Virus genome (UHGV): UHGV-0172517
DNA length: 29,893 nt
Direction: 5' to 3' (one strand)
From: a virus
Both the position numbers and the translations under genes were made by a program. Every line of letters begins with the position of its first letter. Within the stretch, counting starts at the first letter, position 1. Below, in pieces: positions 1 through 27,921 of the stretch. The notes under the pieces are model-generated. The model was given only the letters and a program-made list of their open reading frames with translations. It searched no databases and had not been told where the DNA came from.

Positions 1-155
1 AAGATCACTACGGAGTGCCCGTCAGAGTCATTCGTTGGGAGCCGGAAACACAACGAGTTATCTACCTCCGCGAAGGCTATGAGCATGAGTGCTTCAGCCC
101 GCTCGAACAGTTTCGTCGTAAATTCAGGGAAATAGAGGTCGGTCATGAGCACTAA
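1..155 (+). CDS. 3' end of an upstream CDS (partial, start outside window); function unknown
   Basis: Frame 3 reads through to a TAA at about 153-155 with a plausible globular C-terminal peptide (…[44 protein letters not shown]) and overlaps the next start by ~11 nt, a coupling-type overlap. Frame 1 is an alternative ending near 135. Confidence 0.3.
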
Positions 156-1086
156 ATTAACCGGCTATGTATGGGATGGTTGCGCTGCGTCAGGCATGAA
201 ATTATCCAGCGTGGCAATTATGGCCCGCCTGGCTGATTTCAGTAATGACGAAGGTGTGTGCTGGCCATCAATTGAAACCATTGCCCGTCAGATTGGCGCG
301 GGGATGAGTACCGTCAGAACGGCTATCGCACGGCTGGAAGCAGAAGGCTGGTTAACGCGTAAGGCGCGTCGCCAAGGTAACCGCAATGCGTCGAATGTTT
401 ATCAGCTTAACGTTGCGAAGCTTCAGGCAGCGGCATTTTCTCAACTGTCAGATTCTGACCCGTCAAAATCTGACGCATCAAAATCTGACCCGTCAAAATT
501 TGATGCGTCGAAATCTGGCAAAAAAGCGGTTTTTCACCCGTCAGAATCTGGCGGGGATCCGTCAGTAAAATCAAAACATGATCCGTCAGATAAAAAAACT
601 TCTCGTCCGGACGCTTCGCAACCGGACACGCAGACGGCTGAACAGGAGTTTTTAACTCGCCATCCTGATGCGGTTGTATTCAGCCCTAAAAAGCGCCAGT
701 GGGGAACGCAGGATGATTTGACCTGCGCACAGTGGCTCTGGAAAAAAATCATCGCCCTGTACGAGCAAGCCGCCGAATGTGACGGCGAGGTGGTTCGTCC
801 CAAAGAACCGAACTGGACAGCCTGGGCAAACGAAATTCGCCTGATGTGTGTGCAGGATGGTCGTACTCATAAACAAATCTGCGAGATGTACAGCCGCGTC
901 AGCCGCGATCCGTTCTGGTGCCGTAACGTGCTCAGCCCGTCGAAGCTGCGGGAAAAATGGGATGAGCTTTCCCTGCGCTTATCGCCGTCCGTAAGCACGT
1001 ACACCGAAAAACGCGAAGACCCGTACTTCAAATCCAGTTACGACAACGTGGACTACAGCCAGATCCCGGCAGGATTCAGGGGGTGA
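145..1086 (+). CDS. O: Lambda O-like replication initiator (distinct N-terminal DNA-binding domain, repeat linker, O-type C-terminal domain)
   Basis: 313 aa ORF with SD-like GAGG upstream. C-terminal segment WANEIRLMCVQDGRTHKQICEMYSRVSRDPFWCRNVLSPSKLREKWDEL closely resembles the lambda O C-terminal domain as I recall it (WANDIRLMRERDGRNHRDMCVLFRWACQDNFWSGNVLSPAKLRDKWTQL). The central SDPSKSDASKSDPSKFDAS linker is encoded by iteron-like DNA repeats. Confidence 0.8.
   Translation: MSTKLTGYVWDGCAASGMKLSSVAIMARLADFSNDEGVCWPSIETIARQIGAGMSTVRTAIARLEAEGWLTRKARRQGNRNASNVYQLNVAKLQAAAFSQLSDSDPSKSDASKSDPSKFDASKSGKKAVFHPSESGGDPSVKSKHDPSDKKTSRPDASQPDTQTAEQEFLTRHPDAVVFSPKKRQWGTQDDLTCAQWLWKKIIALYEQAAECDGEVVRPKEPNWTAWANEIRLMCVQDGRTHKQICEMYSRVSRDPFWCRNVLSPSKLREKWDELSLRLSPSVSTYTEKREDPYFKSSYDNVDYSQIPAGFRG
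447..600. repeat. Candidate replication origin: iteron array inside the O-like gene followed by an A/T-rich tract
   Basis: Seen directly: ~15-bp direct repeats tctgacccgtcaaaa / tctgacgcatcaaaa / tctgacccgtcaaaa / tttgatgcgtcgaaa, each with internal dyad TGAC..GTCA, then aaaaaagcggttttt and further CCGTCAG repeats with A-runs. Architecture parallels ori-lambda, which lies within gene O. Confidence 0.6.
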
Positions 1087-1088
1087 TC

Positions 1089-1577
1089 ATGAGTCTGTTA
1101 AATGACGTTCAGAAATTCATTGAAGCCCATCCGGGGTGTACTTCCGGAGACATTGCGGATGCTTTTGCAGGTTACTCACGGCAGCGCGTTCTGCAGTCAG
1201 CAAGCAAGTTACGTCAGAGTGGGCGTGTGGCTCACCGTTGTGAAGGAGATACACGCAGACATTTCCCGCGCCTGACTGAGAGAGCGCAGGAACCGGAACC
1301 ACAACCAGTTCGTGAAACCAGACCTGTGCGCAATTTCTATGTCGGCACTAACGATCCCCGGGTGATTTTGTGCCTGACCCGCCAGGCGGAAGAACTGGAG
1401 TCCAGGGGCTTATACCGTCGTGCTGCAACGGTGTGGATGGCGGCATTCCGTGAAAGCCACTCCCAGCCAGAACGAAACAATTTTCTGGCGCGTCGTGAGC
1501 AGTGTTTACGGAAAAGCAGCAAGCGCGCTGTATCGGGTGATGAGTGGTATCTGTCAGGGAATTACGTGGGGGCTTAA
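1089..1577 (+). CDS. Putative regulator: Ren-like winged-helix N-terminus with PerC-family-like C-terminal motif
   Basis: ORF track gives 1083..1577 from GTG; ATG at 1089 with AGGGGG upstream is the more likely start. C-terminal LESRGLYRRAATVWMAAF…RREQCL matches the PerC/Pch signature (LE.GLWRRAA..W … CL) as I recall it; N-terminus patterns like lambda Ren. Occupies the position after O where lambda has P and ren. Confidence 0.5.
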   Translation: MSLLNDVQKFIEAHPGCTSGDIADAFAGYSRQRVLQSASKLRQSGRVAHRCEGDTRRHFPRLTERAQEPEPQPVRETRPVRNFYVGTNDPRVILCLTRQAEELESRGLYRRAATVWMAAFRESHSQPERNNFLARREQCLRKSSKRAVSGDEWYLSGNYVGA

Positions 1578-2230
1578 TGAGTAATAAATATTGCCAGACG
1601 CTGGTGGAACTGCGGAACAAACCAGCCCATGAACTGAAGGAAGTGGGTGATCAGTGGCGCACGCCGGACAACATTTTCTGGGGAATTAACACCCTGTTTG
1701 GCCCGTTTGTTCTGGATCTGTTCACTGACGGTGATAACGCCAAATGTGCTGCGTATTACACGGCGGAAGACAACGCGCTGGCGCATGACTGGTCAGAACG
1801 TCTTGCGGAGCTTAAAGGGGCTGCCTTTGGTAATCCCCCATACAGCCGCGCCAGTCAGCATGAGGGGCAATACATCACCGGCATGCGTTACATCATGAAA
1901 CATGCCAGTGCCATGCGTGATAAGGGTGGGCGCTATGTTTTCCTGATCAAAGCTGCCACCAGCGAAGTGTGGTGGCCGGAAGATGCAGATCATATTGCTT
2001 TTATTCGCGGGCGTATTGGTTTTGAACTGCCTGCCTGGTTTATCCCGAAGGATGAGAAGCAGGTGCCGACAGGCGCTTTCTTCGCTGGTGCTATTGCTGT
2101 TTTCGACAAGACCTGGAAGGGACCGGCAATTAGCTACATCGGGCGCGATGAACTTGAGGCATGTGGTGAGGCGTTTCTGGCGCAGGTTCGCCAGCAGGCG
2201 GAAAAACTGGTCAGGGAGATGGCGGCATGA
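1577..2230 (+). CDS. Phage N6-adenine DNA methyltransferase (Dam-like, orphan)
   Basis: NPPY catalytic motif (AAFGNPPYSR) typical of N6-adenine MTases. ATG at 1577 overlaps the upstream stop (TAATG); the ORF track's upstream Met at 1544 is probably not the start. Confidence 0.85.
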   Translation: MSNKYCQTLVELRNKPAHELKEVGDQWRTPDNIFWGINTLFGPFVLDLFTDGDNAKCAAYYTAEDNALAHDWSERLAELKGAAFGNPPYSRASQHEGQYITGMRYIMKHASAMRDKGGRYVFLIKAATSEVWWPEDADHIAFIRGRIGFELPAWFIPKDEKQVPTGAFFAGAIAVFDKTWKGPAISYIGRDELEACGEAFLAQVRQQAEKLVREMAA

Positions 2231-2553
2231 CGACGTTAACTCAATGCCAGCAGCAGGTGCTGGATATGCTGATTTCTTATCAGAAAGAACGTGGCTTCCC
2301 GCCAACCAATCAGGAGGTGGCAACCATGCTGGGATACCGTTCGGTGAATGCAGCGGTGGAGCATCTTCGCGCACTGGAGAAAAAAGGCGTCATCACGATA
2401 AAGCGTGGCGTGGCCCGGGGGATAACGCTTCATACCGCGGTGAAGGACGACGACAGCGAGGCGGTCGGGATTATCCGCGCACTGCTTGCCGGTGAGGAAA
2501 ACGCAAGGCTGCGTGCAACCCACTGGTTACATGAGAGGGACCTGAAAGTATGA
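2227..2553 (+). CDS. LexA-like winged-helix DNA-binding protein (LexA N-terminal domain only, no S24 peptidase domain)
   Basis: 108 aa; QQVLDMLISYQKERGFPPTNQEVATMLGYRSVNAAVEHLRALEKKGVITI resembles the LexA N-terminal DNA-binding domain ([50 protein letters not shown], from memory). ATGA start/stop overlap with both neighbours. Confidence 0.75.
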   Translation: MTTLTQCQQQVLDMLISYQKERGFPPTNQEVATMLGYRSVNAAVEHLRALEKKGVITIKRGVARGITLHTAVKDDDSEAVGIIRALLAGEENARLRATHWLHERDLKV

Positions 2554-2939
2554 AGCTGATCCTGCCTTTTCCGCCCAGCGTGAACACGTACTGGAGACAC
2601 CCCAACAAAGGGGCGTTTGCTGGTAAGAGCCTGATAAGCGCGGCGGGGCGAAAATTCCAGAGCGCGGCGTGCGCAGCAATAGTTGAGCAGTTACGTCGTC
2701 TGCCGAAACCAACGTCGGCACCTGCTTCAGTGGAGATCGTGTTATTTCCTCCGGATAACCGGATCCGCGATCTGGACAACTATAACAAGGCGCTGTTTGA
2801 CGCCCTGACCCACGCGGGTGTGTGGGAAGACGACAGTCAGGTGAAAAGAATGCTGGTGGAGTGGGGACCGGTTATCCCGGAAGGGAAGGTCGAGATCACT
2901 ATCAGTAAGTACGAGAAAACGGCGGGTGCAGCCGCCTGA
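2550..2939 (+). CDS. rusA: RusA-family Holliday junction resolvase
   Basis: 129 aa; N-terminal LPFPPSVNTYWRH and the DLDNYNKALFDALT acidic motif are typical of RusA; size matches (~120-130 aa). Start overlaps upstream stop. Confidence 0.85.
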   Translation: MKLILPFPPSVNTYWRHPNKGAFAGKSLISAAGRKFQSAACAAIVEQLRRLPKPTSAPASVEIVLFPPDNRIRDLDNYNKALFDALTHAGVWEDDSQVKRMLVEWGPVIPEGKVEITISKYEKTAGAAA

Positions 2940-2958
2940 TCAAGAGGAGAAACGAAGT

Positions 2959-3768
2959 ATGAATAATCTGATGGTCATTGATGGTATTGAAGTTCGTCGT
3001 GATGCTTATGGGCGTTACAGCCTGAACGATCTGCATCGCGCAGCAGTAGCATCTGGTGCAAATGCCAGAACCAAGGAGCCGGGGAAGTTTCTTTCCAGCC
3101 AACAAACTGTTGAGCTTGTTCATGAATTGACCAACACCCAGAATTTGGGTGTTGACCCGGTGAGTGTGATTCATGGGGGAAATGAACGGGGAACTTATGT
3201 CTGCAAGGAACTGGTGTATGCCTATGCAATGTGGATCAGCCCGTCATTCCATCTGAAGGTGATCCGTACTTTCGATATGGTAACCAGCGCACCGGAAAAA
3301 TTATCCGGACAGGCTGCTGACAAGATGCAGGCTGGTGTGATTCTGCTGGACTTTATGCGCCGGGAGTTAAACCTGTCTAACTCATCTGTGCTTGGGGCCT
3401 GTCAGAAACTCCAGGAGGCTGTTGGCTTACCGAATCTGGCACCGCGCTATGCCATTGATGCTCCTGCTGATGCACACGATGGCTCAAGTCGCCCGACACT
3501 GTCACTGAGTGCACTGCTGAAACAGTATGGTATCCGCCTGACGGCTAATCAGGCATATCACCAGATGGTGAAGCTGGGGATCGTCGAGCAGCGCGAACGA
3601 TACAGCCGTACCGCGATTAACAACATCAAAAAATTCTGGTCGCTGACAGCGAAAGGCTGCATGTTCGGCAAGAACATCACCAGTCCCGCAAATCCGCGCG
3701 AGACGCAGCCGCATTTCTTCGAATCCCGATTCCCTGAGCTGTTAAAGCTGCTCGATACCGTTCATTGA
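2959..3768 (+). CDS. KilA-N domain protein (Roi/antirepressor-like)
   Basis: ATG at 2959 preceded by AAGAGGAGA SD; the ORF track's upstream Met at 2926 is unlikely. N-terminal ~100 aa (MVIDGIEVRRDAYGRYSLNDLHRAA…GGNERGTYVCKELVYAYAMWISPSFHLKVIRTFD) fits a KilA-N DNA-binding domain. Confidence 0.8.
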   Translation: MNNLMVIDGIEVRRDAYGRYSLNDLHRAAVASGANARTKEPGKFLSSQQTVELVHELTNTQNLGVDPVSVIHGGNERGTYVCKELVYAYAMWISPSFHLKVIRTFDMVTSAPEKLSGQAADKMQAGVILLDFMRRELNLSNSSVLGACQKLQEAVGLPNLAPRYAIDAPADAHDGSSRPTLSLSALLKQYGIRLTANQAYHQMVKLGIVEQRERYSRTAINNIKKFWSLTAKGCMFGKNITSPANPRETQPHFFESRFPELLKLLDTVH

Positions 3769-4778: not shown

Positions 4779-5531
4779 ATGAACCTTGAAGCCTTACCAA
4801 AATATTACTCCCCAAAATCTCCAAAATTGAGCGATGACGCACCGGCGACAGGCTCAGGTGGTTTAACGATTACGGATGTGATGGCTGCGCAGGGGATGGT
4901 GCAGTCGAAAGCACCGCTTGGGTTTGCCTTATTCCTGGCAAAAGTTGGTGTTCAGGATCCTCAATTTGCGATTGAAGGTCTGCTCAATTACGCGATGGCA
5001 CTGGATAACCCGACATTGAACAAATTGAGTGAAGAAACCCGGTTACAGATCATCCCTTACCTTGTGAATTTTGCCTTTGCTGATTATTCCAGGTCTGCGG
5101 CAAGTAAGGCTCGCTGTGAGCATTGTGCTGGTACTGGATTTCATAATGTATTGCGCGAAGTGGTGAAACACTCCAGAAGCGGGGAATCTGTTATCAAGGA
5201 AGAGTGGGTGAAGGAACTATGTCAGCATTGTCATGGTAAGGGAGAAGTCAGCACAGCGTGCAGAGGGTGTAAGGGTAAAGGTATTGTCCTGGATGAAAAA
5301 AGGACCCGGCTTCATGGCACGCCTGTTTATAAGATTTGTGGGCGTTGCAATGGAAATCGGTTTAGCCGTTTACCAACCACACTGGCGCGGCATCATGTCC
5401 AGAAGCTGGTACCAGACCTGACGGATTATCAGTGGTACAAAGGATATGCAGATGTCATTGATAAACTGGTGACAAAGTGCTGGCAGGAAGAAGCATATGC
5501 TGAGGCGCAATTAAGAAAAGTGACGAGATAA
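4779..5531 (+). CDS. Q: Late-gene antiterminator Q (lambda Q family, QuuQ-like, with extra Zn-binding CxxC motifs)
   Basis: 250 aa; GGAGA SD 7 nt upstream. N-terminus YSPKSPKLSDD…TDVMAAQGM resembles lambda Q (HSPKSPMMSD…TDVMAAMGM, from memory); multiple CxxC pairs. Sits immediately upstream of the lysis cassette. Confidence 0.8.
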   Translation: MNLEALPKYYSPKSPKLSDDAPATGSGGLTITDVMAAQGMVQSKAPLGFALFLAKVGVQDPQFAIEGLLNYAMALDNPTLNKLSEETRLQIIPYLVNFAFADYSRSAASKARCEHCAGTGFHNVLREVVKHSRSGESVIKEEWVKELCQHCHGKGEVSTACRGCKGKGIVLDEKRTRLHGTPVYKICGRCNGNRFSRLPTTLARHHVQKLVPDLTDYQWYKGYADVIDKLVTKCWQEEAYAEAQLRKVTR

Positions 5532-5819: not shown

Positions 5820-6062
5820 ATGGTGGATCGTTGTTCTGTTTGTGAGCAGTCATTAAGTTATTCACGAGAAGTTGAACAAGATGGCGTTGAATATAAATCT
5901 TGCCCAAAATGTTCTGCTGATGCCGGAGTGCACGTTTTTTATAAAACAATAGACTTTGGTTATAGGGATATGGGAGACGGAAGGCATATCGTTCAGTCAT
6001 GGTGTCCGGCTTGTCGTTCTGGTGAAAAACCTTCTATACCACCAGCATTTAAATGTTGTTAA
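5820..6062 (+). CDS. Small Cys-rich putative zinc-ribbon protein (moron; function unknown)
   Basis: 80 aa ORF with strong SD AGGAGAG 5 nt before the ATG; CxxC pairs at residues 5/8, 28/31, 62/65 and a terminal CC; AT-rich relative to flanks; followed by its own terminator. Confidence 0.55.
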   Translation: MVDRCSVCEQSLSYSREVEQDGVEYKSCPKCSADAGVHVFYKTIDFGYRDMGDGRHIVQSWCPACRSGEKPSIPPAFKCC

Positions 6063-7970: not shown

Positions 7971-8381
7971 TTAGTGCGGAAATATTTGTGTAGTGTTCTG
8001 AATGTTCTCAGTAAAGAGTAATGAATTATCAAAGGTATAGTAATACCTTTTGTTTTCGTGGATATTTGTAATCCATCTGAAAACCCCTGCTGTAGCAAGA
8101 TTTTTCCTGTATTCGTAAAATGATAACTCTCCTGATTTGAATCCTTTTAAGGTGGCTTCTATAAGGCATTTATTTTTTGAAAATCTTACATTTACAACCT
8201 TACCCTGTCCTTTTATTAAAACCGTATTATCGTTTTCAAGAACAAGATGAATATTCTCTGTAGCTAAATAGTAAATGTAATGTGAGACATTGTGACGTTT
8301 TAGTTCAGAATAAAACCAGTGATAGTTTAAATTATTTCGCACTTTATCGAATATTTGTTTAAAAATGGCAACCTGAGCCAT
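7971..8381 (-). CDS. DUF1398 / YbcV-like moron protein (function unknown)
   Basis: ORF track 7971..8396; the second ATG at 8381 has a better SD (GGAAGG) than the first. AT-rich gene on the opposite strand to all phage genes; position between Rz and terminase matches ybcV in DLP12-type prophages. Confidence 0.6.
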
Positions 8382-8437
8382 TGTGGTACCTTCCATGTGA
8401 TATGAGGGGCGTAGTCTGCACGATTATCTAAATTGCT

Positions 8438-9059: not shown

Positions 9060-9579
9060 ATGGAAGTCAACAAAAAGCAGCTGGCTGACATTTTCGGTGC
9101 GAGTATCCGTACCATTCAGAACTGGCAGGAACAGGGAATGCCCGTTCTGCGAGGCGGTGGCAAGGGTAATGAGGTGCTTTATGACTCTGCCGCCGTCATA
9201 AAATGGTATGCCGAAAGGGATGCTGAAATTGAGAACGAAAAGCTGCGCCGGGAGGTTGAAGAACTGCGGCAGGCCAGCGAGGCAGATCTCCAGCCAGGAA
9301 CTATTGAGTACGAACGCCATCGACTTACGCGTGCGCAGGCCGACGCACAGGAACTGAAGAATGCCAGAGACTCCGCTGAAGTGGTGGAAACCGCATTCTG
9401 TACTTTCGTGTTGTCGCGGATCGCAGGTGAAATTGCCAGTATTCTCGACGGGCTCCCCCTGTCGGTGCAGCGGCGTTTTCCGGAACTGGAAAACCGACAT
9501 GTTGATTTCCTGAAACGGGATATTATCAAAGCCATGAACAAAGCAGCCGCGCTGGATGAACTGATACCGGGGTTGCTGA

Positions 9580-9605
<26 letters not shown>
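9060..9605 (+). CDS. nu1: Terminase small subunit Nu1
   Basis: 181 aa, same length as lambda Nu1; MEVNKKQLADIFGASIRTIQNWQEQGMPVLRGGGKGNEV… matches lambda Nu1. Confidence 0.97.
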
Positions 9606-13286
<3,681 letters not shown>

Positions 13287-13306
<20 letters not shown>

Positions 13307-14606
13307 TCTCCCGCATATTGCCAGCATGGCTTTTAATGAGCCGCTGATGCTTGAACCCGCCTATGCGCGGGTTTTCTTTTGTGCGCTTGCAGGCCAGTTT
13401 GGGATCAGCCGCCTGACGGATGCAGTATCCGGCGACAGCCTGACTGCCGGAGAGGCACCCGCGGCGCTGGCGTTATCCGGTGATGATGACGGACCACGAC
13501 AGGCCCGCAGTTATCAGGTCATGAACGGCATCGCCGTGCTGCCGGTGTCCGGTACGCTGGTCAGCCGGACGCGGGCGCTGCAGCCGTATTCGGGAATGAC
13601 CGGTTACAACGGCATTATCGCCCGTCTGCAACAGGCTGCCAGCGATCCGATGGTGGACGGCATTCTGCTGGATATGGACACACCGGGCGGGATGGTGGCG
13701 GGAGCATTTGACTGTGCTGACATCATCGCCCGTGTGCGAGACATAAAACCGGTATGGGCGCTGGCCAACGACATGAACTGCAGTGCAGGTCAGCTGCTTG
13801 CCAGCGCCGCCTCCCGGCGTCTGGTCACGCAGACCGCCCGGACAGGCTCCATCGGCGTCATGATGGCTCACAGTAATTACGGTGCTGCGCTGGAGAAACA
13901 GGGCGTGGAAATCACGCTGATTTACAGCGGCAGCCATAAGGTGGATGGCAACCCCTACAGCCATCTACCGGATGATGTCCGGGAAACACTGCAGTCCCGG
14001 ATGGATGCAACCCGCCGGATGTTTGCACAGAAGGTGTCGGCATATACCGGCCTGTCCGTGCAGGCTGTGCTGGATACCGAGGCTGCAGTGTACAGCGGTC
14101 AGGAGGCCATTGATGCCGGACTGGCTGATGAACTTGTTAACAGCACCGATGCGATCACCGTCATGCGTGATGCACTGGATGCACGTAAATCCCGTCTCTC
14201 AGGAGGGCGAATGACCAAAGAGACTCAATCAACAACTGTTTCAGCCACTGCTTCGCAGGCTGACGTTACTGACGTGGTGCCAGCGACGGAGGGCGAGAAC
14301 GCCAGCGCGGCGCAGCCGGACGTGAACGCGCAGATCACCGCAGCGGTTGCGGCAGAAAACAGCCGCATTATGGGGATCCTCAACTGTGAGGAGGCTCACG
14401 GACGCGAAGAACAGGCACGCGTGCTGGCAGAAACCCCCGGTATGACCGTGAAAACGGCCCGCCGCATTCTGGCCGCAGCACCACAGAGTGCACAGGCGCG
14501 CAGTGACACTGCGCTGGATCGTCTGATGCAGGGGGCACCGGCACCGCTGGCTGCAGGTAACCCGGCATCTGATGCCGTTAACGATTTGCTGAACACACCA
14601 GTGTAA
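13287..14606 (+). CDS. C: Head protease / minor capsid protein C (ClpP/S49-like)
   Basis: GTG start at 13287 preceded by GAGGAGGAGAAG; 439 aa as in lambda C; overlaps the B 3' end by 20 nt. The ORF track's upstream Met at 13152 is not the start. Confidence 0.93.
14001..14606 (+). CDS. nu3: Scaffolding protein Nu3 (in-frame internal start within C)
   Basis: Internal ATG at 14001 (MDATRRMFAQ…) in the C frame with shared stop, corresponding to lambda nu3. Confidence 0.8.
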   Translation: MDATRRMFAQKVSAYTGLSVQAVLDTEAAVYSGQEAIDAGLADELVNSTDAITVMRDALDARKSRLSGGRMTKETQSTTVSATASQADVTDVVPATEGENASAAQPDVNAQITAAVAAENSRIMGILNCEEAHGREEQARVLAETPGMTVKTARRILAAAPQSAQARSDTALDRLMQGAPAPLAAGNPASDAVNDLLNTPV

Positions 14607-14615
14607 GGGATGTTT

Positions 14616-14948
14616 ATGACGAGCAAAGAAACCTTTACCCATTACCAGCCGCAGGGCAACAGTGACCCGGCTCATACCGCAACCGCGCCCGGCGGATTGA
14701 GTGCGAAAGCGCCTGCAATGACCCCGCTGATGCTGGACACCTCCAGCCGTAAGCTGGTTGCGTGGGATGGCACCACCGACGGTGCTGCCGTTGGCATTCT
14801 TGCGGTTGCTGCTGACCAGACCAGCACCACGCTGACGTTCTACAAGTCCGGCACGTTCCGTTATGAGGATGTGCTCTGGCCGGAGGCTGCCAGCGACGAG
14901 ACGAAAAAACGGACCGCGTTTGCCGGAACGGCAATCAGCATCGTTTAA
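14616..14948 (+). CDS. D: Head decoration protein D
   Basis: 110 aa from the Met at 14616; [27 protein letters not shown]… matches lambda gpD. Confidence 0.96.
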
Positions 14949-14967
14949 CTTTACCCTTCATCACTAA

Positions 14968-14992
14968 AGGCCGCCTGTGCGGCTTTTTTTAC
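14968..14992 (+). terminator. Hairpin plus T7 run between D and E (terminator-like / mRNA structure)
   Basis: ggccgc-ctgt-gcggct followed by ttttttt, immediately after the D stop and before the E SD. Confidence 0.45.
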
Positions 14993-15003
14993 GGGATTTT
15001 TTT

Positions 15004-16029
15004 ATGTCGATGTACACAACCGCCCAGCTGCTGGCGGCAAATGAGCAGAAATTTAAGTTTGATCCGCTGTTTCTGCGTCTCTTTTTCCGTGAGAGCTATC
15101 CCTTCACTACGGAGAAAGTCTATCTCTCACAAATTCCGGGACTGGTAAACATGGCGCTGTACGTTTCGCCGATTGTTTCCGGTGAGGTTATCCGTTCCCG
15201 TGGCGGCTCCACCTCTGAATTTACGCCGGGATATGTCAAACCCAAGCATGAAGTGAATCCGCAGATGACCCTGCGTCGCCTGCCGGATGAAGATCCGCAG
15301 AATCTGGCGGACCCGGCTTACCGCCGCCGTCGCATCATCATGCAGAACATGCGTGACGAAGAGCTGGCCATTGCTCAGGTCGAAGAGATGCAGGCAGTTT
15401 CTGCCGTGCTTAAGGGCAAATATACCATGACCGGTGAAGCCTTCGATCCGGTTGAGGTGGATATGGGCCGCAGTGAGGCGAATAACATCACGCAGTCCGG
15501 CGGCACGGAGTGGAGCAAGCGTGACAAGTCCACGTATGACCCGACCGACGATATCGAAGCCTACGCGCTGAACGCCAGCGGTGTGGTGAATATCATCGTG
15601 TTTGATCCGAAAGGCTGGGCGCTGTTCCGTTCCTTCAAAGCCGTCAAGGAGAAGCTGGATACCCGTCGCGGCTCTCATTCCGAGCTGGAGACAGCGGTAA
15701 AAGACCTGGGCAAAGCGGTGTCCTATAAGGGAATGTATGGCGATGTGGCCATCGTCGTGTATTCCGGACAGTACGTGGAAAACGGCGTCAAAAAGAACTT
15801 CCTGCCGGACAACACGATGGTGCTGGGGAACACTCAGGCTCGCGGTCTGCGCACCTATGGCTGCATTCAGGATGCGGACGCACAGCGCGAAGGCATTAAC
15901 GCCTCTGCCCGTTACCCGAAAAACTGGGTGACTACCGGCGATCCGGCGCGTGAGTTCACCATGATTCAGTCAGCACCGCTGATGCTGCTGGCTGATCCTG
16001 ATGAGTTCGTGTCCGTTCAACTGGCGTAA
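15004..16029 (+). CDS. E: Major capsid protein E
   Basis: 341 aa from ATG 15004 (MSMYTTAQLLAANEQKFKFDPLF…), matching lambda gpE in sequence and length. Confidence 0.97.
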   Translation: MSMYTTAQLLAANEQKFKFDPLFLRLFFRESYPFTTEKVYLSQIPGLVNMALYVSPIVSGEVIRSRGGSTSEFTPGYVKPKHEVNPQMTLRRLPDEDPQNLADPAYRRRRIIMQNMRDEELAIAQVEEMQAVSAVLKGKYTMTGEAFDPVEVDMGRSEANNITQSGGTEWSKRDKSTYDPTDDIEAYALNASGVVNIIVFDPKGWALFRSFKAVKEKLDTRRGSHSELETAVKDLGKAVSYKGMYGDVAIVVYSGQYVENGVKKNFLPDNTMVLGNTQARGLRTYGCIQDADAQREGINASARYPKNWVTTGDPAREFTMIQSAPLMLLADPDEFVSVQLA

Positions 16030-16031
16030 TC

Positions 16032-16049
16032 ATGGCCCTTCGGGGCCAT
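16032..16049 (+). other. Perfect stem-loop with UUCG tetraloop just after the E stop
   Basis: atggccc-ttcg-gggccat: a 7-bp perfect stem. It contains the spurious upstream ATG (16032) that the ORF track used for FI. Confidence 0.5.
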
Positions 16050-16070
16050 TGTTTCTCTGTGGAGGAGTCC

Positions 16071-16469
16071 ATGACGAAAGATGAACTGATTGCCCGTCTC
16101 CGCTCGCTGGGTGAACAACTGAACCGTGATGTCAGCCTGACGGGGACGAAAGAAGAACTGGCGCTCCGTGTGGCAGAGCTGAAAGAGGAGCTTGATGACA
16201 CGGATGAAACTGCCGGTCAGGACACCCCTCTCAGCCGGGAAAATGTGCTGACCGGACATGAAAATGAGGTGGGATCAGCGCAGCCGGATACCGTGATTCT
16301 GGATACGTCTGAACTGGTCACGGTCGTGGCACTGGTGAAGCTGCATACTGATGCACTTCACGCCACGCGGGATGAACCTGTGGCATTTGTGCTGCCGGGA
16401 ACGGCGTTTCGTGTCTCTGCCGGTGTGGCAGCCGAAATGACAGAGCGCGGCCTGGCCAGAATGCAATAA
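16071..16469 (+). CDS. FI: DNA packaging protein FI
   Basis: 132 aa from ATG 16071 with GGAGGAG SD; MTKDELIARLRSLGEQLNRDVSLTGTKEEL… matches lambda gpFI. Confidence 0.95.
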   Translation: MTKDELIARLRSLGEQLNRDVSLTGTKEELALRVAELKEELDDTDETAGQDTPLSRENVLTGHENEVGSAQPDTVILDTSELVTVVALVKLHTDALHATRDEPVAFVLPGTAFRVSAGVAAEMTERGLARMQ

Positions 16470-16480
16470 CGGGAGGCGCT

Positions 16481-16834
16481 GTGGCTGATTTCGATAACCT
16501 GTTCGATGCTGCCATTGCCCGCGCCGATGAAACGATACGCGGGTACATGGGAACGTCAGCCACCATTACATCCGGTGAGCAGTCAGGTGCGGTGATACGT
16601 GGTGTTTTTGATGACCCTGAAAATATCAGCTATGCCGGACAGGGCGTGCGCGTTGAAGGCTCCAGCCCGTCCCTGTTTGTCCGGACTGATGAGGTGCGGC
16701 AGCTGCGGCGTGGAGACACGCTGACCATCGGTGAGGAAAATTTCTGGGTAGATCGGGTTTCGCCGGATGATGGCGGAAGCTGTCATCTCTGGCTTGGACG
16801 GGGCGTACCGCCTGCCGTTAACCGTCGCCGCTGA
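16481..16834 (+). CDS. FII: Head-tail connector protein FII
   Basis: 117 aa; GTG start with GGGAGG SD; matches lambda gpFII. Confidence 0.95.
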   Translation: MADFDNLFDAAIARADETIRGYMGTSATITSGEQSGAVIRGVFDDPENISYAGQGVRVEGSSPSLFVRTDEVRQLRRGDTLTIGEENFWVDRVSPDDGGSCHLWLGRGVPPAVNRRR

Positions 16835-16845
16835 AAGGGGGATGT

Positions 16846-17424
16846 ATGGCCATAAAAGGTCTTGAGCAGGCCGTTGAAAACCTCAGCCGTATCAGCAGAA
16901 CGGCGGTGCCCGGTGCCGCCGCAATGGCCATTAACCGAGTTGCTTCATCCGCGATATCGCAGTCGGCGTCACAGGTTGCCCGTGAGACAAAGGTACGCCG
17001 GAAACTGGTAAAGGAAAGGGCCAGGCTGAAAAGGGCCACGGTCAAAAATCCGCAGGCCAGAATCAAGGTTAACCGGGGGGATTTGCCCGTAATCAAGCTG
17101 GGTAATGCGCGGGTTGTCCTTTCGCGCCGCAGGCGTCGTAAAAAGGGGCAGCGTTCATCCCTGAAAGGTGGCGGCAGCGTGCTTGTGGTGGGAAACCGTC
17201 GTATTCCCGGCGCGTTTATTCAGCAACTGAAAAATGGCCGGTGGCATGTCATGCAGCGTGTGGCCGGGAAAAACCGTTACCCCATTGATGTGGTGAAAAT
17301 TCCGATGGCGGTGCCGCTGACCACGGCGTTTAAACAGAATATTGAGCGGATACGGCGTGAACGTCTTCCGAAAGAGCTGGGCTATGCGCTGCAGCATCAA
17401 CTGAGAATGGTAATAAAGCGATGA
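16846..17424 (+). CDS. Z: Tail completion protein Z
   Basis: 192 aa; same length and position as lambda gpZ. Confidence 0.95.
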   Translation: MAIKGLEQAVENLSRISRTAVPGAAAMAINRVASSAISQSASQVARETKVRRKLVKERARLKRATVKNPQARIKVNRGDLPVIKLGNARVVLSRRRRRKKGQRSSLKGGGSVLVVGNRRIPGAFIQQLKNGRWHVMQRVAGKNRYPIDVVKIPMAVPLTTAFKQNIERIRRERLPKELGYALQHQLRMVIKR

Positions 17425-17816
17425 AACATACTGAACTCCGCGCAGCCGTACTGGATGCACTGGAGAAGCATGACACCGGGGCGACGTTTTTTGATGGTCG
17501 CCCCGCTGTTTTTGATGAGGCGGATTTTCCGGCAGTTGCCGTTTATCTCACCGGCGCTGAATACACGGGCGAAGAGCTGGACAGCGATACCTGGCAGGCG
17601 GAGCTGCATATCGAAGTTTTCCTGCCTGCTCAGGTGCCGGATTCAGAGCTGGATGCGTGGATGGAGTCCCGGATTTATCCGGTGATGAGCGATATCCCGG
17701 CACTGTCAGATTTGATCACCAGTATGGTGGCCAGTGGCTATGACTACCGGCGCGACGATGATGCGGGCCTGTGGAGTTCAGCCGATCTGACTTATGTCAT
17801 TACCTATGAAATGTGA
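17421..17816 (+). CDS. U: Tail terminator protein U
   Basis: 131 aa; ATGA overlap with Z; matches lambda gpU. Confidence 0.95.
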
Positions 17817-17823
17817 GGACGAT

Positions 17824-18564
17824 ATGCCAACACCAAATCCTCTGGCACCGGTGAAAGGGGCCGGGACCACCCTGTGGGTTTATAACGGGAGCGGCGACCC
17901 TTATGCAAACCCGCTTTCAGACAATGACTGGTCGCGTCTGGCAAAGGTTAAAGACCTGACGCCCGGCGAACTGACCGCTGAGTCCTATGACGACAGTTAT
18001 CTCGATGATGAAGATGCGGACTGGACCGCGACCGGACAGGGGCAGAAATCCGCCGGAGATACCAGCTTCACGCTGGCGTGGATGCCCGGAGAGCAGGGGC
18101 AGCAGGCGCTGCTGGCGTGGTTTAATGAAGGTGATACCCGTGCCTATAAAATCCGCTTCCCGAACGGCACGGTCGATGTGTTCCGCGGCTGGGTCAGCAG
18201 TATCGGTAAGGCGGTGACGGCGAAGGAAGTGATCACCCGCACGGTGAAAGTCACCAATGTGGGACGTCCGTCGATGGCAGAAGATCGCAGCACGGTAACA
18301 GCGGTAACCGGTATGACCGTGACGCCAGCCAGCGCTTCCGTAGTGAAAGGGAAGAGCACCACGCTGACCGTGGCATTCCAGCCGGAAGGCGCAACCGACA
18401 AGAGCTTCCGTGCGGTGTCAGCGGATAAAACAAAAGCCACCGTGTCGGTCAGTGGTATGACCATCACCGTGAATGGCGTTGCTGCAGGCAAGGTCAACAT
18501 TCCGATTGTATCCGGTAATGGTGAGTTTGCTGCGGTTGCAGAAATCACCGTCACCGCCAGTTAA
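17824..18564 (+). CDS. V: Major tail tube protein V (with C-terminal Ig-like domain)
   Basis: 246 aa from the Met at 17824 ([20 protein letters not shown]…); same length as lambda gpV. Confidence 0.95.
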
Positions 18565-18579
18565 TCCGGAGAGTCAGAG

Positions 18580-19002
18580 ATGTTCCTGAAAACCGAATCA
18601 TTTGAACATAACGGTGTGACCGTCACGCTTTCTGAACTGTCAGCCCTGCAGCGTATTGAGCATCTCGCCCTGATGAAACGGCAGGCAGAACAGGCGGAGT
18701 CAGACAGCAACCGGAAGTTTACTGTGGAAGACGCCATCAGAACCGGCGCGTTTCTGGTGGCGATGTCCCTGTGGCATAACCATCCGCAGAAGACAAAGCA
18801 GCCTTCCATGAATGAAGCCGTTAAACAGATTGAGCAGGAAGTGCTTACCACCTGGCCCACAGAGGCAATTTCTCATGCTGAAAACGTGGTGTACCGGCTG
18901 TCTGGTATGTATGAGTTTGTGGTGAATAATGCCCCTGAACAGGCAGAGGACGCCGGGCCCGCAGAACCTGTTTCTGCGGGAAAGTGTTCGACGGTGAGCT
19001 GA
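18580..19002 (+). CDS. G: Tail assembly chaperone G
   Basis: 140 aa; matches lambda gpG; ends …AGPAEPVSAGKCSTVS just after the slippery site. Confidence 0.95.
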   Translation: MFLKTESFEHNGVTVTLSELSALQRIEHLALMKRQAEQAESDSNRKFTVEDAIRTGAFLVAMSLWHNHPQKTKQPSMNEAVKQIEQEVLTTWPTEAISHAENVVYRLSGMYEFVVNNAPEQAEDAGPAEPVSAGKCSTVS

Positions 19003-19418
19003 GTTTTGCCCTGAAACTGGCGCGTGAGATGGGGCGACCCGACTGGCGTGCCATGCTTGCCGGGATGTCATCCACGGAGTATGCCGACTGGCACCGCTTT
19101 TACAGTACCCATTATTTTCATGATGTTCTGCTGGATATGCACTTTTCCGGGCTGACGTACACCGTGCTCAGCCTGTTTTTCAGCGATCCGGATATGCATC
19201 CGCTGGATTTCAGTCTGCTGAACCGGCGCGAGGCTGACGAAGAGCCTGAAGATGATGTGCTGATGCAGAAAGCGGCAGGGCTTGCCGGAGGTGTCCGCTT
19301 TGGCCCGGACGGGAATGAAGTTATCCCTACTTCCCCGGATGTGGCGGACATGACGGAGGATGACGCAATGCTGATGACAGTATCAGAAGGGATCGCAGGA
19401 GGAGTCCGGTATGGCTGA
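18580..19418 (+). CDS. T: Tail assembly chaperone G-T fusion produced by -1 frameshift
   Basis: The T-frame ORF (track 18984..19418) has no independent SD and overlaps the G 3' end; combined length matches lambda gpG-T. Confidence 0.85.
18978..18984 (+). promoter_or_regulatory. -1 programmed ribosomal frameshift slippery heptamer GGGAAAG (G to G-T fusion)
   Basis: GGGAAAG present 6 codons before the G stop; the -1 frame continues as an open frame (VFDGELSFALKLAREMG…) to 19418, as in lambda G/T. Confidence 0.85.
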
Positions 19419-21972
19419 ACCGGTAGGCGATCTGGTCGTTGATTTGAGTCTGGATGCGGCCAGATTTGACGAGCAGATGGCCAGAGTCAGGCGTCATTTT
19501 TCCGGTACGGAAAGTGATGCGAAAAAAACAGCGGCAGTCGTTGAACAGTCGCTGAGCCGACAGGCGCTGGCTGCACAGAAAGCGGGGATTTCCGTCGGGC
19601 AGTATAAAGCTGCCATGCGTATGCTGCCTGCGCAGTTCACTGACGTGGCCACGCAGCTTGCAGGCGGGCAAAGTCCGTGGCTGATCCTGCTGCAACAGGG
19701 GGGGCAGGTGAAGGACTCCTTCGGCGGGATGATCCCCATGTTCAGGGGGCTTGCCGGTGCGATCCCCCTGCCGATGGTGGGGGCCACCTCGCTGGCGGTG
19801 GCGACCGGTGCGCTGGCGTATGCCTGGTATCAGGGCAACTCAACCCTGTCCGATTTCAACAAAACGCTGGTCCTTTCCGGTCATCAGTCGGGTCTGACGG
19901 CAGATCGTATGCTGGTCCTGTCCAGAGCCGGGCAGGCGGCAGGGCTGACGTTTAACCAGACCAGCGAGTCACTCAGCGCACTGGTTAAGGCGGGGGTAAG
20001 CGGTGAGGCTCAGATTGCGTCCATCAGCCAGAGTGTGGCGCGTTTCTCCTCTGCATCCGGCGTGGAGGTGGACAAGGTCGCTGAAGCCTTCGGGAAGCTG
20101 ACCACAGACCCGACGTCGGGGCTGACGGCGATGGCACGCCAGTTCCATAACGTGACGGCGGAGCAGATTGCGTATGTTGCTCAGTTGCAGCGTTCCGGCG
20201 ATGAAGCCGGGGCATTGCAGGCGGCGAACGAGGCCGCAACGAAAGGGTTTGATGACCAGACCCGCCGCCTGAAAGAGAACATGGGCACGCTGGAGACCTG
20301 GGCAGACAGGACTGCGCGGGCATTCAAATCCATGTGGGATGCGGTGCTGGATATTGGTCGTCCTGATACCGCGCAGGAGATGCTGATTAAGGCAGAGGCT
20401 GCGTTTAAGAAAGCAGACGACATCTGGAATCTGCGCAAGGATGATTATTTTGTTAACGATGAAGCGCGGGCGCGTTACTGGGATGATCGTGAAAAGGCCC
20501 GTCTTGCGCTTGAAGCCGCCCGAAAGAAGGCTGAGCAGCAGACTCAACAGGACAAAAATGCGCAGCAGCAGAGCGATACCGAAGCGTCACGGCTGAAATA
20601 TACCGAAGAGGCGCAGAAGGCTTACGAACGGCTGCAGACGCCGCTGGAGAAATATACCGCCCGTCAGGAAGAACTGAACAAGGCACTGAAAGACGGGAAA
20701 ATCCTGCAGGCAGATTACAACACGCTGATGGCGGCGGCGAAAAAGGATTATGAAGCGACGCTGAAAAAGCCGAAACAGTCCGGCGTGAAAGTGTCTGCGG
20801 GCGATCGTCAGGAAGACAGTGCTCATGCTGCCCTGCTGACGCTTCAGGCAGAACTCCGGACGCTGGAGAAGCATGCCGGAGCGAATGAGAAAATCAGCCA
20901 GCAGCGCCGGGATTTGTGGAAGGCAGAAAGTCAGTTCGCGGTACTGGAGGAGGCGGCACAACGTCGCCAGCTGTCCGCACAGGAGAAATCCCTGCTGGCG
21001 CATAAAGATGAGACGCTGGAGTACAAACGCCAGCTGGCTGCACTTGGCGACAAGGTTACGTATCAGGAGCGCCTGAACGCGCTGGCGCAGCAGGCGGATA
21101 AATTCGCACAGCAGCAACGGGCAAAACGGGCCGCCATTGATGCGAAAAGCCGGGGGCTGACTGACCGGCAGGCAGAACGGGAAGCCACGGAACAGCGCCT
21201 GAAGGAACAGTATGGCGATAATCCGCTGGCGCTGAATAACGTCATGTCAGAGCAGAAAAAGACCTGGGCGGCTGAAGACCAGCTTCGCGGGAGCTGGATG
21301 GCAGGCCTGAAGTCCGGCTGGAGTGAGTGGGAAGAGAGCGCCACGGACAGTATGTCGCAGGTAAAAAGTGCAGCCACGCAGACCTTTGATGGTATTGCAC
21401 AGAATATGGCGGCGATGCTGACCGGCAGTGAGCAGAACTGGCGCAGCTTCACCCGTTCCGTGCTGTCCATGATGACAGAAATTCTGCTTAAGCAGGCAAT
21501 GGTGGGGATTGTCGGGAGTATCGGCAGCGCCATTGGCGGGGCTGTTGGTGGCGGCGCATCCGCGTCAGGCGGTACAGCCATTCAGGCCGCTGCGGCGAAA
21601 TTCCATTTTGCAACCGGAGGATTTACGGGAACCGGCGGCAAATATGAGCCAGCGGGGATTGTTCACCGTGGTGAGTTTGTCTTCACGAAGGAGGCAACCA
21701 GCCGGATTGGCGTGGGGAATCTTTACCGGCTGATGCGCGGCTATGCCACCGGCGGTTATGTCGGTACACCGGGCAGCATGGCAGACAGCCGGTCGCAGGC
21801 GTCCGGGACGTTTGAGCAGAATAACCATGTGGTGATTAACAACGACGGCACGAACGGGCAGATAGGTCCGGCTGCTCTGAAGGCGGTGTATGACATGGCC
21901 CGCAAGGGTGCCCGTGATGAAATTCAGACACAGATGCGTGATGGTGGTCTGTTCTCCGGAGGTGGACGATGA
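19411..21972 (+). CDS. H: Tail tape measure protein H
   Basis: 853 aa, same length as lambda gpH; long coiled-coil-rich sequence with a Gly-rich C-terminal region. Confidence 0.96.
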   Translation: MAEPVGDLVVDLSLDAARFDEQMARVRRHFSGTESDAKKTAAVVEQSLSRQALAAQKAGISVGQYKAAMRMLPAQFTDVATQLAGGQSPWLILLQQGGQVKDSFGGMIPMFRGLAGAIPLPMVGATSLAVATGALAYAWYQGNSTLSDFNKTLVLSGHQSGLTADRMLVLSRAGQAAGLTFNQTSESLSALVKAGVSGEAQIASISQSVARFSSASGVEVDKVAEAFGKLTTDPTSGLTAMARQFHNVTAEQIAYVAQLQRSGDEAGALQAANEAATKGFDDQTRRLKENMGTLETWADRTARAFKSMWDAVLDIGRPDTAQEMLIKAEAAFKKADDIWNLRKDDYFVNDEARARYWDDREKARLALEAARKKAEQQTQQDKNAQQQSDTEASRLKYTEEAQKAYERLQTPLEKYTARQEELNKALKDGKILQADYNTLMAAAKKDYEATLKKPKQSGVKVSAGDRQEDSAHAALLTLQAELRTLEKHAGANEKISQQRRDLWKAESQFAVLEEAAQRRQLSAQEKSLLAHKDETLEYKRQLAALGDKVTYQERLNALAQQADKFAQQQRAKRAAIDAKSRGLTDRQAEREATEQRLKEQYGDNPLALNNVMSEQKKTWAAEDQLRGSWMAGLKSGWSEWEESATDSMSQVKSAATQTFDGIAQNMAAMLTGSEQNWRSFTRSVLSMMTEILLKQAMVGIVGSIGSAIGGAVGGGASASGGTAIQAAAAKFHFATGGFTGTGGKYEPAGIVHRGEFVFTKEATSRIGVGNLYRLMRGYATGGYVGTPGSMADSRSQASGTFEQNNHVVINNDGTNGQIGPAALKAVYDMARKGARDEIQTQMRDGGLFSGGGR

Positions 21973-22298
21973 AAACCTTCCGCTGGAAAGTGAAACCCGG
22001 TATGGATGTGGCTTCGGCCCCTTCTGTAAGAAAGGTGCGCTTTGGTGATGGCTGTTCCCAGCGAGCGCCTGCCGGGCTGAATGCCAACCTGAAAACGTAC
22101 AGCGTGACGCTTTCTGTCCCCCGTGAGGAGGCCACGGTACTGGAGTCGTTTCTGGAAGAGCACGGGGGCTGGAAAGCCTTTCTGTGGACGCCGCCTTATG
22201 AGTGGCGGCAGATAAAGGTGACCTGCGCAAAATGGTCGTCGCGGGTCAGTATGCTGCGTGTTGAGTTCAGCGCAGAGTTTGAACAGGTGGTGAACTGA
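21969..22298 (+). CDS. M: Minor tail protein M
   Basis: 109 aa; ATGA overlap with H; matches lambda gpM. Confidence 0.95.
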   Translation: MKTFRWKVKPGMDVASAPSVRKVRFGDGCSQRAPAGLNANLKTYSVTLSVPREEATVLESFLEEHGGWKAFLWTPPYEWRQIKVTCAKWSSRVSMLRVEFSAEFEQVVN

Positions 22299-22996
22299 TG
22301 CAGGATATCCGGCAGGAAACACTGAATGAATGCACCCGTGCGGAGCAGTCGGCCAGCGTGGTGCTCTGGGAAATCGACCTGACAGAGGTCGGTGGAGAAC
22401 GTTATTTTTTCTGTAATGAGCAGAACGAAAAAGGTGAGCCGGTCACCTGGCAGGGGCGACAGTATCAGCCGTATCCCATTCAGGGGAGCGGTTTTGAACT
22501 GAATGGCAAAGGCACCAGTACGCGCCCCACGCTGACGGTTTCTAACCTGTACGGTATGGTCACCGGGATGGCGGAAGATATGCAGAGTCTGGTCGGCGGA
22601 ACGGTGGTCCGGCGTAAGGTTTACGCCCGTTTTCTGGATGCGGTGAACTTCGTCAACGGAAACAGTTATGCCGATCCGGAGCAGGAGGTGATCAGCCGCT
22701 GGCGCATTGAGCAGTGCAGCGAACTGAGCGCGGTGAGTGCCTCCTTTGTACTGTCCACGCCGACGGAAACGGATGGCGCTGTTTTTCCGGGACGTATCAT
22801 GCTGGCCAACACCTGCACCTGGACCTATCGCGGTGACGAGTGCGGTTATAGCGGTCCGGCGGTCGCGGATGAATATGACCAGCCAACGTCCGATATCACG
22901 AAGGATAAATGCAGCAAATGCCTGAATGGCTGTAAGTTTCGCAATAACGTCGGCAACTTTGGCGGCTTCCTTTCCATTAACAAACTTTCGCAGTAA
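22298..22996 (+). CDS. L: Minor tail protein L
   Basis: 232 aa; matches lambda gpL, including the C-terminal Cys cluster (CTWTYRGDECGY…CSKCLNGC). Confidence 0.95.
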   Translation: MQDIRQETLNECTRAEQSASVVLWEIDLTEVGGERYFFCNEQNEKGEPVTWQGRQYQPYPIQGSGFELNGKGTSTRPTLTVSNLYGMVTGMAEDMQSLVGGTVVRRKVYARFLDAVNFVNGNSYADPEQEVISRWRIEQCSELSAVSASFVLSTPTETDGAVFPGRIMLANTCTWTYRGDECGYSGPAVADEYDQPTSDITKDKCSKCLNGCKFRNNVGNFGGFLSINKLSQ

Positions 22997-23001
22997 ATCC
23001 C

Positions 23002-23745: not shown

Positions 23746-24314
23746 AAACGGGGGCTGAAGCCATCCGCGCACTGGCCACACAGCTCCCGGCGTTTCGTCA
23801 GAAACTGAGCGACGGCTGGTATCAGGTACGGATTGCCGGGCGGGACGTCAGCACGTCCGGGTTAACGGCGCAGTTACATGAGACTCTGCCTGATGGCGCT
23901 GTGATTCATATTGTTCCCAGAGTCGCCGGGGCCAAGTCAGGTGGCGTATTCCAGATTGTCCTGGGAGCAGCCGCCATTGCCGGATCATTCTTTACTGCCG
24001 GAGCCACCCTTGCAGCATGGGGGGCAGCCATTGGGGCCGGTGGTATGACCGGCATCCTGTTTTCTCTCGGTGCCAGTATGGTGCTCGGTGGTGTGGCGCA
24101 GATGCTGGCACCGAAAGCCAGAACTCCCCGTACACAGACAACGGATAACGGCAAACAGAACACCTATTTCTCGTCACTGGATAACATGGTTGCCCAGGGC
24201 AATGTTCTGCCGGTTCTGTACGGTGAAATGCGCGTGGGGTCACGCGTGGTTTCTCAGGAGATCAGCACGGCAGACGAAGGGGATGGTGGTCAGGTTGTGG
24301 TGATTGGTCGCTGA
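23643..24314 (+). CDS. I: Tail tip assembly protein I
   Basis: 223 aa; overlaps the K 3' end by ~100 nt in another frame as in lambda; ubiquitin-like N-terminus and Gly/Ala-rich hydrophobic middle. Confidence 0.93.
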   Translation: MAATHTLPLASPGMARICLYGDLQRFGRRIDLRVKTGAEAIRALATQLPAFRQKLSDGWYQVRIAGRDVSTSGLTAQLHETLPDGAVIHIVPRVAGAKSGGVFQIVLGAAAIAGSFFTAGATLAAWGAAIGAGGMTGILFSLGASMVLGGVAQMLAPKARTPRTQTTDNGKQNTYFSSLDNMVAQGNVLPVLYGEMRVGSRVVSQEISTADEGDGGQVVVIGR

Positions 24315-24332
24315 TGCAAAATGTTTTATGTG

Positions 24333-24353: not shown

Positions 24354-24374
24354 GTCGTTTATGGAGCGTGAGGA

Positions 24375-27854: not shown

Positions 27855-27873
27855 ATTTTATAACCCCAATACG

Positions 27874-27897: not shown

Positions 27898-27921
27898 ATT
27901 GCAGAAAAGCGAGAGGTAATT

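Follow-up and report, generated by a model that had tools for sequence, protein, structure and literature searches.

The genome of virus UHGV-0172517, a DNA stretch of 29,893 nucleotides (nt) that we refer to as the window, begins in the early-right operon of a lambdoid prophage and codes for a lambda O-like replication initiator (313 amino acids (aa), positions 145–1086, + strand) that is not accompanied by a helicase loader gene. Comparison with related loci revealed that the missing loader is an ordinary, widespread and working architecture, not a deletion. The best explanation is an intact SfII/CPS-53-type replication module that uses the DnaB–DnaC complex of the host, probably docked via a DnaT-like tail of the initiator; judging from the sequence comparisons, we assign this reading a probability of roughly 0.6. 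Since there is no phage loader, phages with this module are viable, and loading of Escherichia coli DnaB requires DnaC or P, it is very likely that replication depends on host DnaC. The assignment of the tail as the docking element is more tentative, and we would rate it slightly below an even chance.

A first-pass annotation of the window had noted that no helicase loader lies between the genes for O and Q, and this could be confirmed for the window as a whole. Pfam and PHROG scans of 43 open reading frames (ORFs), i.e. all likely genes, gave no match to the P (PF06992), DnaC/IstB (PF01695) or DnaB-like (PF03796) families. Likewise, when lambda P, E. coli DnaC, DnaT and P22 gp12 (a DnaB-like helicase) were compared by phmmer with every stop-to-stop ORF of 40 aa or longer in the six frames of the window (389 in total), no hit was better than E 0.1. 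The genes from the initiator to Q are all otherwise assigned (Dam, LexA DNA-binding domain, RusA, KilA-N, DUF968/HNH and Q), and the late region of the window comprises lambda-like lysis, head and tail genes. Neither a P nor a DnaC or DnaB-like gene was detected by phmmer in 84 related loci, including the whole of SfII. The complete SfII genome has no loader, helicase or primase by annotation, and no loader or helicase by phmmer.

The same module is found in functional phages. Positions 1–3000 share 97.9–98.7% DNA identity with the sequenced phages SfII, vB_EcoS-569R4, Kati, PhiR29 and others; SfIV matches this region at 98.2%, but without the methylase segment. Both SfII and SfIV have been induced, form plaques and have been propagated (PMC3772137, PMC3851460). 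Furthermore, 1080 of 5426 complete E. coli genomes contain at least 80% of the first 3 kb, which extends from the initiator to RusA, and about 600 viral contigs share the architecture. Three ways to account for the missing gene had been offered in the first-pass annotation, namely a deletion that left a defective prophage, a loader gene upstream of the window, and use of the host loader. The second is refuted for near-identical relatives, because the 99% identical prophage of E. coli ECONIH1 has int, xis, yfdT, yfdR, cI, cro, ymfL and DUF4222 upstream, and because the complete SfII genome lacks a loader. The DUF4222 gene extends into the window, where its 3′ part, cut by the window edge, occupies positions 15–155 (+; Pfam PF13973; a 59-aa coding sequence in ECONIH1). 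Of the first proposal, the defect is not supported, as plaque-forming SfII and SfIV have the same module, but a past loss of dnaC is plausible from the colinearity of two loci (L111, initiator–DUF1627; L180, initiator–dnaC–DUF1627) that match save for a dnaC gene of roughly 740 bp. Replication would survive such a loss, as DnaC is available from the host. Use of the host loader thus appears to be the best-supported of the three options, with indirect support by exclusion and from the DnaT-like tail. A truly defective version of the module exists in two E. coli chromosomes (L089, L090), which harbor CPS-53/KpLE1-type remnants with an initiator cut to its last 122 aa (yfdO) and an intact yfdN.

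The initiator, which was delineated by its ORF, Pfam HTH_36, PHROG 391 and BLASTP against lambda O, consists of an N-terminal winged helix, an iteron-encoded linker, a lambda-O-like C-terminal core and a DnaT-like tail. PHROG 391 ('replication initiation O-like') covers the protein from end to end (E 7e-135). The winged-helix DNA-binding domain (residues 23–70, positions 211–354, +) is of the HTH_36 type (PF13730, E 4e-11). Phage_rep_O (PF04492) was not found in the Pfam scan of the initiator, in which other winged-helix models, including GntR-like ones, matched instead, and BLASTP did not align its N-terminus with that of lambda O. Residues 131–277, however, align with residues 139–270 of lambda O at 35% identity over 149 columns (BLASTP, E 2e-25; lambda O against the initiator by phmmer, E 1.7e-23). 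The helical core itself spans approximately residues 172–280 (positions 658–984, +). A profile of this domain found no match among the Protein Data Bank sequences, and homologs retrieved with the last 148 aa as query were short fragments only, which tell little about architecture. The core would be a shared scaffold, possibly of the DnaD/G39P-like type. The remaining C-terminal tail (residues 281–313, positions 985–1083, +) is disordered in the structural model (predicted local distance difference test score, pLDDT, <60), which fits the expectation for a linear motif. Accordingly, the lambda O-type C-terminal domain ascribed to the initiator by the first-pass annotation is genuine with respect to the core, but the homology ends about 25 residues short of the C-terminus, and the extreme tail is DnaT-like. 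The initiator belongs to the lambda O family only in part, since it has another N-domain, no P and another tail. Nor is it a DnaT, for the tail alone matches; neither the C-terminal single-stranded DNA-binding domain of DnaT (PF17948) nor its N-terminal oligomerization domain was found in the initiator.

A putative origin lies within the initiator gene in the form of a 15-bp iteron array (positions 445–594), which is apparent from repeat families, palindromic cores and enrichment over shuffled sequences. Five tandem 15-bp iterons are located at 445–517, with more copies at 538–554 and 556–594 (repeat families D1–D3), and their cores are palindromic: GTCAnnnnnTGAC. The iteron pattern matches nine times in 445–594 versus 2.7 matches expected from shuffles in the whole window. 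An A-rich stretch with 32% GC follows the iterons at 560–599. At the protein level, the array encodes the repetitive linker SDPSKSDASKSDPSKFDASKS. This layout parallels that of lambda, with ori inside gene O. A consensus DnaA box does not occur in the window, and its one-mismatch sites are far from the origin; two one-mismatch sites are present in ymfL of relatives. As all of these DnaA-box-like sites occur at chance level and none is near the origin, we set aside DnaA-assisted loading.

It is important to note how closely the end of the initiator resembles that of E. coli DnaT. The window protein terminates with ...DYSQIPAGFRG, and its last nine residues, SQIPAGFRG (nt 1057–1083), are identical to the DnaT C-terminus SQIPPGFRG in eight of nine positions. 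Other loader-less initiators end with RCVNHISEPDTEIPPGFRG, which is 14/20 identical to DnaT. Among 107 DnaT orthologs, IP.GFRG is conserved to at least 98%. In E. coli, dnaT is located directly upstream of dnaC, and the similarity extends to the DNA level, with 24 of the last 30 nt of the initiator gene shared with dnaT. Comparison of sequences, junctions and codon usage pointed to a junction AGGGGG-TGA-TC-ATG (positions 1078–1091, +), in which the last two initiator codons serve also as the Shine–Dalgarno sequence of the next gene. The arrangement GGATTCAGRGGGTRA-NN-ATG is common to the host dnaT–dnaC junction and to phage junctions of initiator and next gene (window 1078–1091; L006; L095 6430–6445), and the stop codon precedes the next ATG by 2 nt in dnaT–dnaC, L095 and the window. 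The final codons are AGG, a rare arginine codon, in 19/20 and GGG in 17/20 distinct versions. These codons are nearly invariant, and the bases that specify the C-terminal R-G also make up the ribosome-binding site of the next gene. In several viral contigs (L222, L228–L230 and similar ones), 333-aa proteins are encoded directly upstream of a phage dnaC, and their C-terminal part matches E. coli DnaT over C-terminal domain and tail (E 4e-21). Judging from its sequence, this module appears to be either the origin of the host dnaT–dnaC operon or derived from it.

We then related the tails to the neighboring loader genes. As a scan of viral contigs first gave 80 near-identical loci without diversity, a one-genome-per-species collection was used instead, in which 80 loci with a lambda-O-like core yielded 60 distinct pairs of initiator and next gene. 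All 29 Trp-acidic tails (WN[ST]xEAWExx[LI]; DWIYGVDL in lambda) adjoin P. Tails of the GFRG type are followed by DnaC in one case and by neither loader in 14, but never by P; those of the QDYxxGVxxDGxF type by DnaC in seven cases, by neither in one and by P in none. The other tails are split between P (two) and neither (six), with no DnaC. For this distribution chi2 is 94, a statistic that ignores phylogeny. Three loci (L093, L096, L098) are particularly instructive: they share the N-domain, linker and core of the window protein up to '...KLREKWDELSLKLS', diverge in the last ~25 residues only, and have P as the next gene. A complementary picture emerged from 80 viral dnaC loci fetched with a prophage DnaC (49% identical to host DnaC) as query. 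Seventy-nine of them have an upstream ORF, and it ends with RD[IVP]NxISxPDxx[IV]PxGFRG in 79/79. These dnaC-linked GFRG tails are mounted on at least five body types (lambda-O-like core with two N-terminal types, lambda-O-N/P22-gp18, DnaT-CTD-like, mEp460-type and unrecognized). A WN[ST]xExWExxL tail stands upstream of all viral P genes examined (15/15), in one case on an unrelated body. Among the loci examined, P was never found after an [IV]PxGFRG tail, which is followed by a phage dnaC or no loader instead. GFRG-like endings occur in 13 of 101 full-length proteins from the best 150 of 2667 core-domain cluster representatives. Five of these, distant GFRG-tail initiators with 38–55% core identity, were inspected, and all are loader-less (5/5) and arranged as (YdaS–YdaT–)initiator–DUF1627/MarR-like. 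The comparison thus indicates that the lambda-O-like core does not track the loader partner, but the last ~25 residues do. Consequently, the view of the first-pass annotation that the initiator has retained the P-recruiting part of O has to be revised, since P-linked, DnaC-linked and loader-less initiators share the core and differ in the last ~25 residues.

The tail also appears in a different context and at a recombination site. Phages of the SfV/mEp460/Stx2a type have a 272-aa initiator with a different body and the same ending, REDPYFK[SA]SYDNVDYSQIPAGFRG, and a PerC–Dam–LexA–RusA cassette follows it as in the window. Their DNA homology with the window begins at about position 1011, within the tail-coding part; 40 other phage records start to match at 1011, which marks a mosaic joint.

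The gene after the initiator is yfdN-like (positions 1089–1577, +; 162 aa from ATG 1089 or 164 aa from GTG 1083), and both ORFs, 145–1086 and 1083/1089–1577, are located where the first-pass annotation had placed them. Of the proposed Ren/PerC-like nature of its product, the PerC part holds true, with a match to PF06069 at residues 98–151 (39 bits versus a cut-off of 22.6). Ren does not, as no local alignment with lambda Ren was obtained at E ≤ 100. Similarity to lambda P is also lacking. A confident AlphaFold2 (AF2) model of YfdN displays a winged helix (residues 1–60), a disordered linker and a three-helix PerC domain (residues 90–149). Within the close family, yfdN lies next to the initiator in 82/84 loci, and the genes after other GFRG-tail initiators code for PerC-like, DUF977, DUF1627, MT-A70, Dam or ParB-like proteins. 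In loader-carrying modules, small winged-helix genes of the same kind come right behind dnaC (54 loci) or P. As they follow real loaders, YfdN sits past the loader slot, not in it. The YfdN-like protein is therefore probably a regulator and not a loader; its fold and its position after real loaders argue against a disguised or divergent loader, as which the 162-aa protein had been considered.

Taken together, these data are best explained by the following scenario. The N-terminal winged helix of the initiator may bind the 15-bp iterons within its own gene, and the initiator may then bring in host DnaB–DnaC directly, so that no P would be needed. The contact would most likely be made by the disordered C-terminal tail ending with [IV]PxGFRG. 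The lambda-O-like core would be a scaffold, and the tail an 'address' for the loader, Trp-acidic for P and GFRG for enterobacterial DnaC, and the PerC-like YfdN would represent a regulator gene normally placed after the loader slot. Extending this scenario, one may speculate that the [IV]PxGFRG tail is the missing contact by which both the PriA–PriB–DnaT preprimosome and phage O-somes recruit DnaB6–DnaC6, and that the last ~15–25 residues are a swappable loader address; we consider this generalization possible, with the odds somewhat against it. Such an address could be exchanged by recombination with or without the loader gene, and the QDY..DGxF tail would be the address for a betaproteobacterial DnaC-like loader. 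If this were true, loader-less phages would be molecular mimics of DnaT.

Several points weigh against docking of host DnaB–DnaC via the tail. The link between tail and DnaC is drawn from comparison, not from experiment, and no DnaT–DnaC interaction is documented; the latest structural work favors the N-terminal domain of DnaT for DnaB/DnaC recruitment (PMC5778457, PMC11087952, PMC13377028). The window tail shares only its last nine residues with DnaT and is without the RDxNxISxPD segment of DnaC-linked tails. The counts given above ignore phylogeny, and the 79 dnaC loci represent a single DnaC clade (74–100% identity). In addition, TTC-AGG-GGG is constrained as DNA, too, since it forms the ribosome-binding site of the next gene. 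Given this constraint and the fact that the tail adjoins the loader gene, part of the covariation could be due to linkage at a recombination joint or to coupling. Finally, inducibility is known for the relatives SfII and SfIV, but not for the prophage of the window.

Some of these points would also fit an explanation in which the tail motif merely reflects conservation of the DNA junction, i.e. of the ribosome-binding site for translational coupling and a recombination joint, and the core or another surface recruits DnaB(–DnaC) directly, in the manner of iteron-plasmid initiators. The near-invariant AGG and GGG codons, the 2-nt spacing of stop and start in dnaT–dnaC, L095 and the window, and the mosaic joints just upstream of the tail all speak for it. 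Yet the codons for I/V, P and G in IPxGF show synonymous variation and the residues are kept; in L102 the next gene is 40 nt downstream and has its own ribosome-binding site, and still the tail is 14/20 identical to DnaT. The motif is retained in proteins with 38–55% core identity, and the upstream RDxNxISxPD segment is conserved as well, so that we regard a pure junction effect as unlikely. Rather unlikely, too, is a scenario in which the tail docks PriA (or PriB/PriC) in place of DnaC, and the initiator, having opened the origin, leaves the loading of DnaB to the host PriA–PriB–DnaT restart primosome. It is true that the tail matches a preprimosome subunit, DnaT, that the C-terminal domain of DnaT contacts PriA through a conserved hydrophobic interface (PMC13377028), and that phiX174, Mu and ColE1 take the PriA route (PMC5778457); DnaT residues 154–179 are outside the crystal fragment used to model the PriA contact. 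However, the tail covaries with the adjoining loader gene and not with any pri gene, the parallel behavior of the P-type and DnaC-type tails is in keeping with docking of a loader, and an origin-binding initiator does not need PriA for its localization.

Two further alternatives carry less weight. That a phage protein without recognizable homology (YfdN, DUF4222 or YmfL) is the real loader or adaptor could be argued from the steady position of yfdN behind the initiator in the close family and from the ongoing discovery of non-homologous phage-derived loaders (PMC11087808); with the fold and position of YfdN described above, we deem it improbable. Least probable is that loss of a loader gene has rendered the window prophage replication-defective. 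The window lacks a loader gene, and defective CPS-53-type relatives do exist (L089 and L090 with the 122-aa truncated initiator), but the initiator of the window has full length, its iterons are intact, host DnaC is available, and the identical architecture is present in plaque-forming phages and in the viral contigs mentioned above.

The module, which may dock host DnaB–DnaC through its tail, can be compared with several known systems. It shares with lambda O/P an own iteron origin in the initiator gene, iterons that encode a flexible linker, a homologous core (35%) and the location after cro/cII in the early-right operon. It deviates by HTH_36 in place of Phage_rep_O, by the lack of a P gene and by the DnaT-like [IV]PxGFRG tail, which replaces the Trp-acidic tail of P-linked relatives. 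With the enterobacterial modules of initiator and DnaC (L095, L168–L247) it has in common the GFRG-type tail, often the lambda-O-like core, the stop–2 nt–ATG junction and a subsequent gene of the DUF1627 type or another winged-helix type. These modules, however, possess their own dnaC, which is missing from the window, and the window tail is without RDxNxISxPD. The resemblance to E. coli dnaT–dnaC comprises the C-terminal nonapeptide (8/9) and a junction doubling as ribosome-binding site; DnaT, by contrast, is recruited to forks by PriA/PriB, not to iterons, and the window protein is without DnaT domains. The RAST/PHROG label 'primosomal protein (I)' for the initiator thus overstates the similarity to DnaT. 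Iteron plasmids (pSC101 RepA, R6K pi, RK2 TrfA) use host DnaB–DnaC without a loader of their own, and they, too, employ a winged-helix initiator on iterons together with host helicase and loader. In contrast to the window, where none were found in or near the origin, their origins usually contain DnaA boxes. In DopC, which is encoded next to a loader, an O-like N-terminal part is joined to a C-terminal motif of DnaT (PMC5509034); unlike the window protein, DopC has a P-like loader as its partner and lacks iterons (DopC/DopE). Among the replication regions of Stx phages, Eru5, 6, 8, 11 and 13 code for HTH_36 proteins, some with YdaT upstream (PMC8951638), and Eru1–3 are modules different from that of the window. 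In the Eru papers the regions are classified, but neither the absence of a loader nor the tail is taken up. We found no paper on the missing loader or on tail–loader covariation in this initiator family, in a literature survey that covered the older work on phage modules incompletely.

These findings have several implications. The module resides in thousands of prophages of E. coli and Shigella, relatives of Stx2 phages among them, and it would be wrong to class these as replication-defective. Annotation pipelines mislabel their initiator as 'replication protein O' or 'primosomal protein I'. Furthermore, the way in which the E. coli preprimosome recruits DnaB–DnaC has been stated to be unknown in papers from 2024–2026, and DnaT residues 154–179 are not discussed in recent structural work (PMC11087952, PMC13377028). 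The phage comparison singles out a short DnaT peptide as a specific, testable candidate for DnaC recruitment, and the tail pattern offers a possible reason for the sites at which lambdoid replication modules recombine.

In the course of the survey we noted O-like initiators with yet other tails in Massilia/Duganella prophages (L126 6381–7121, L144 6362–6982). The proteins encoded by the subsequent genes (206–246 aa; DUF6475 in one of them) have no match to P or DnaC and are candidates for further non-homologous loaders. Identical lambda O–P sequence turned up in assemblies of Shewanella, Pseudomonas, Neobacillus, Bradyrhizobium, Kitasatospora and others (L133–L141, L146, L164 and more), mostly on short low-coverage contigs, and is almost certainly lambda DNA contamination.

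Further genes of the window deserve mention. A LexA protein reduced to the DNA-binding domain (108 aa, 2227–2553, +; PF01726, E 3e-19) has no S24 cleavage domain. Its gene is conserved in the nin-like region, and by its domain content the protein could mimic LexA without being cleavable and modulate the SOS regulon of the host. The Q protein (250 aa, 4779–5531, +) has a DnaJ-type CxxCxGxG zinc-finger region (PF03589 + PF00684). SfII and ECONIH1 have a short, unrelated Q at the same position, and these differing genes imply a mosaic switch just after DUF968. Between Q and holin, in the stx/moron slot of Stx phages, a Cys-rich ORF (80 aa, 5820–6062, +) without a Pfam match features CxxC...CxxC...CxxC and ends with KCC. 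A DUF1398 gene on the opposite strand (7971–8396, −), in AT-rich surroundings between the lysis cassette and Nu1, looks like a moron. The late region (9060–28521) is of the lambda type, with Nu1, A, B, C, D, E, FI, FII, Z, U, V, G, T, H, M, L, K, I, J and Lom. As SfII has the same replication module but a contractile-tail gene set, the replication module apparently moves between unrelated virion types.

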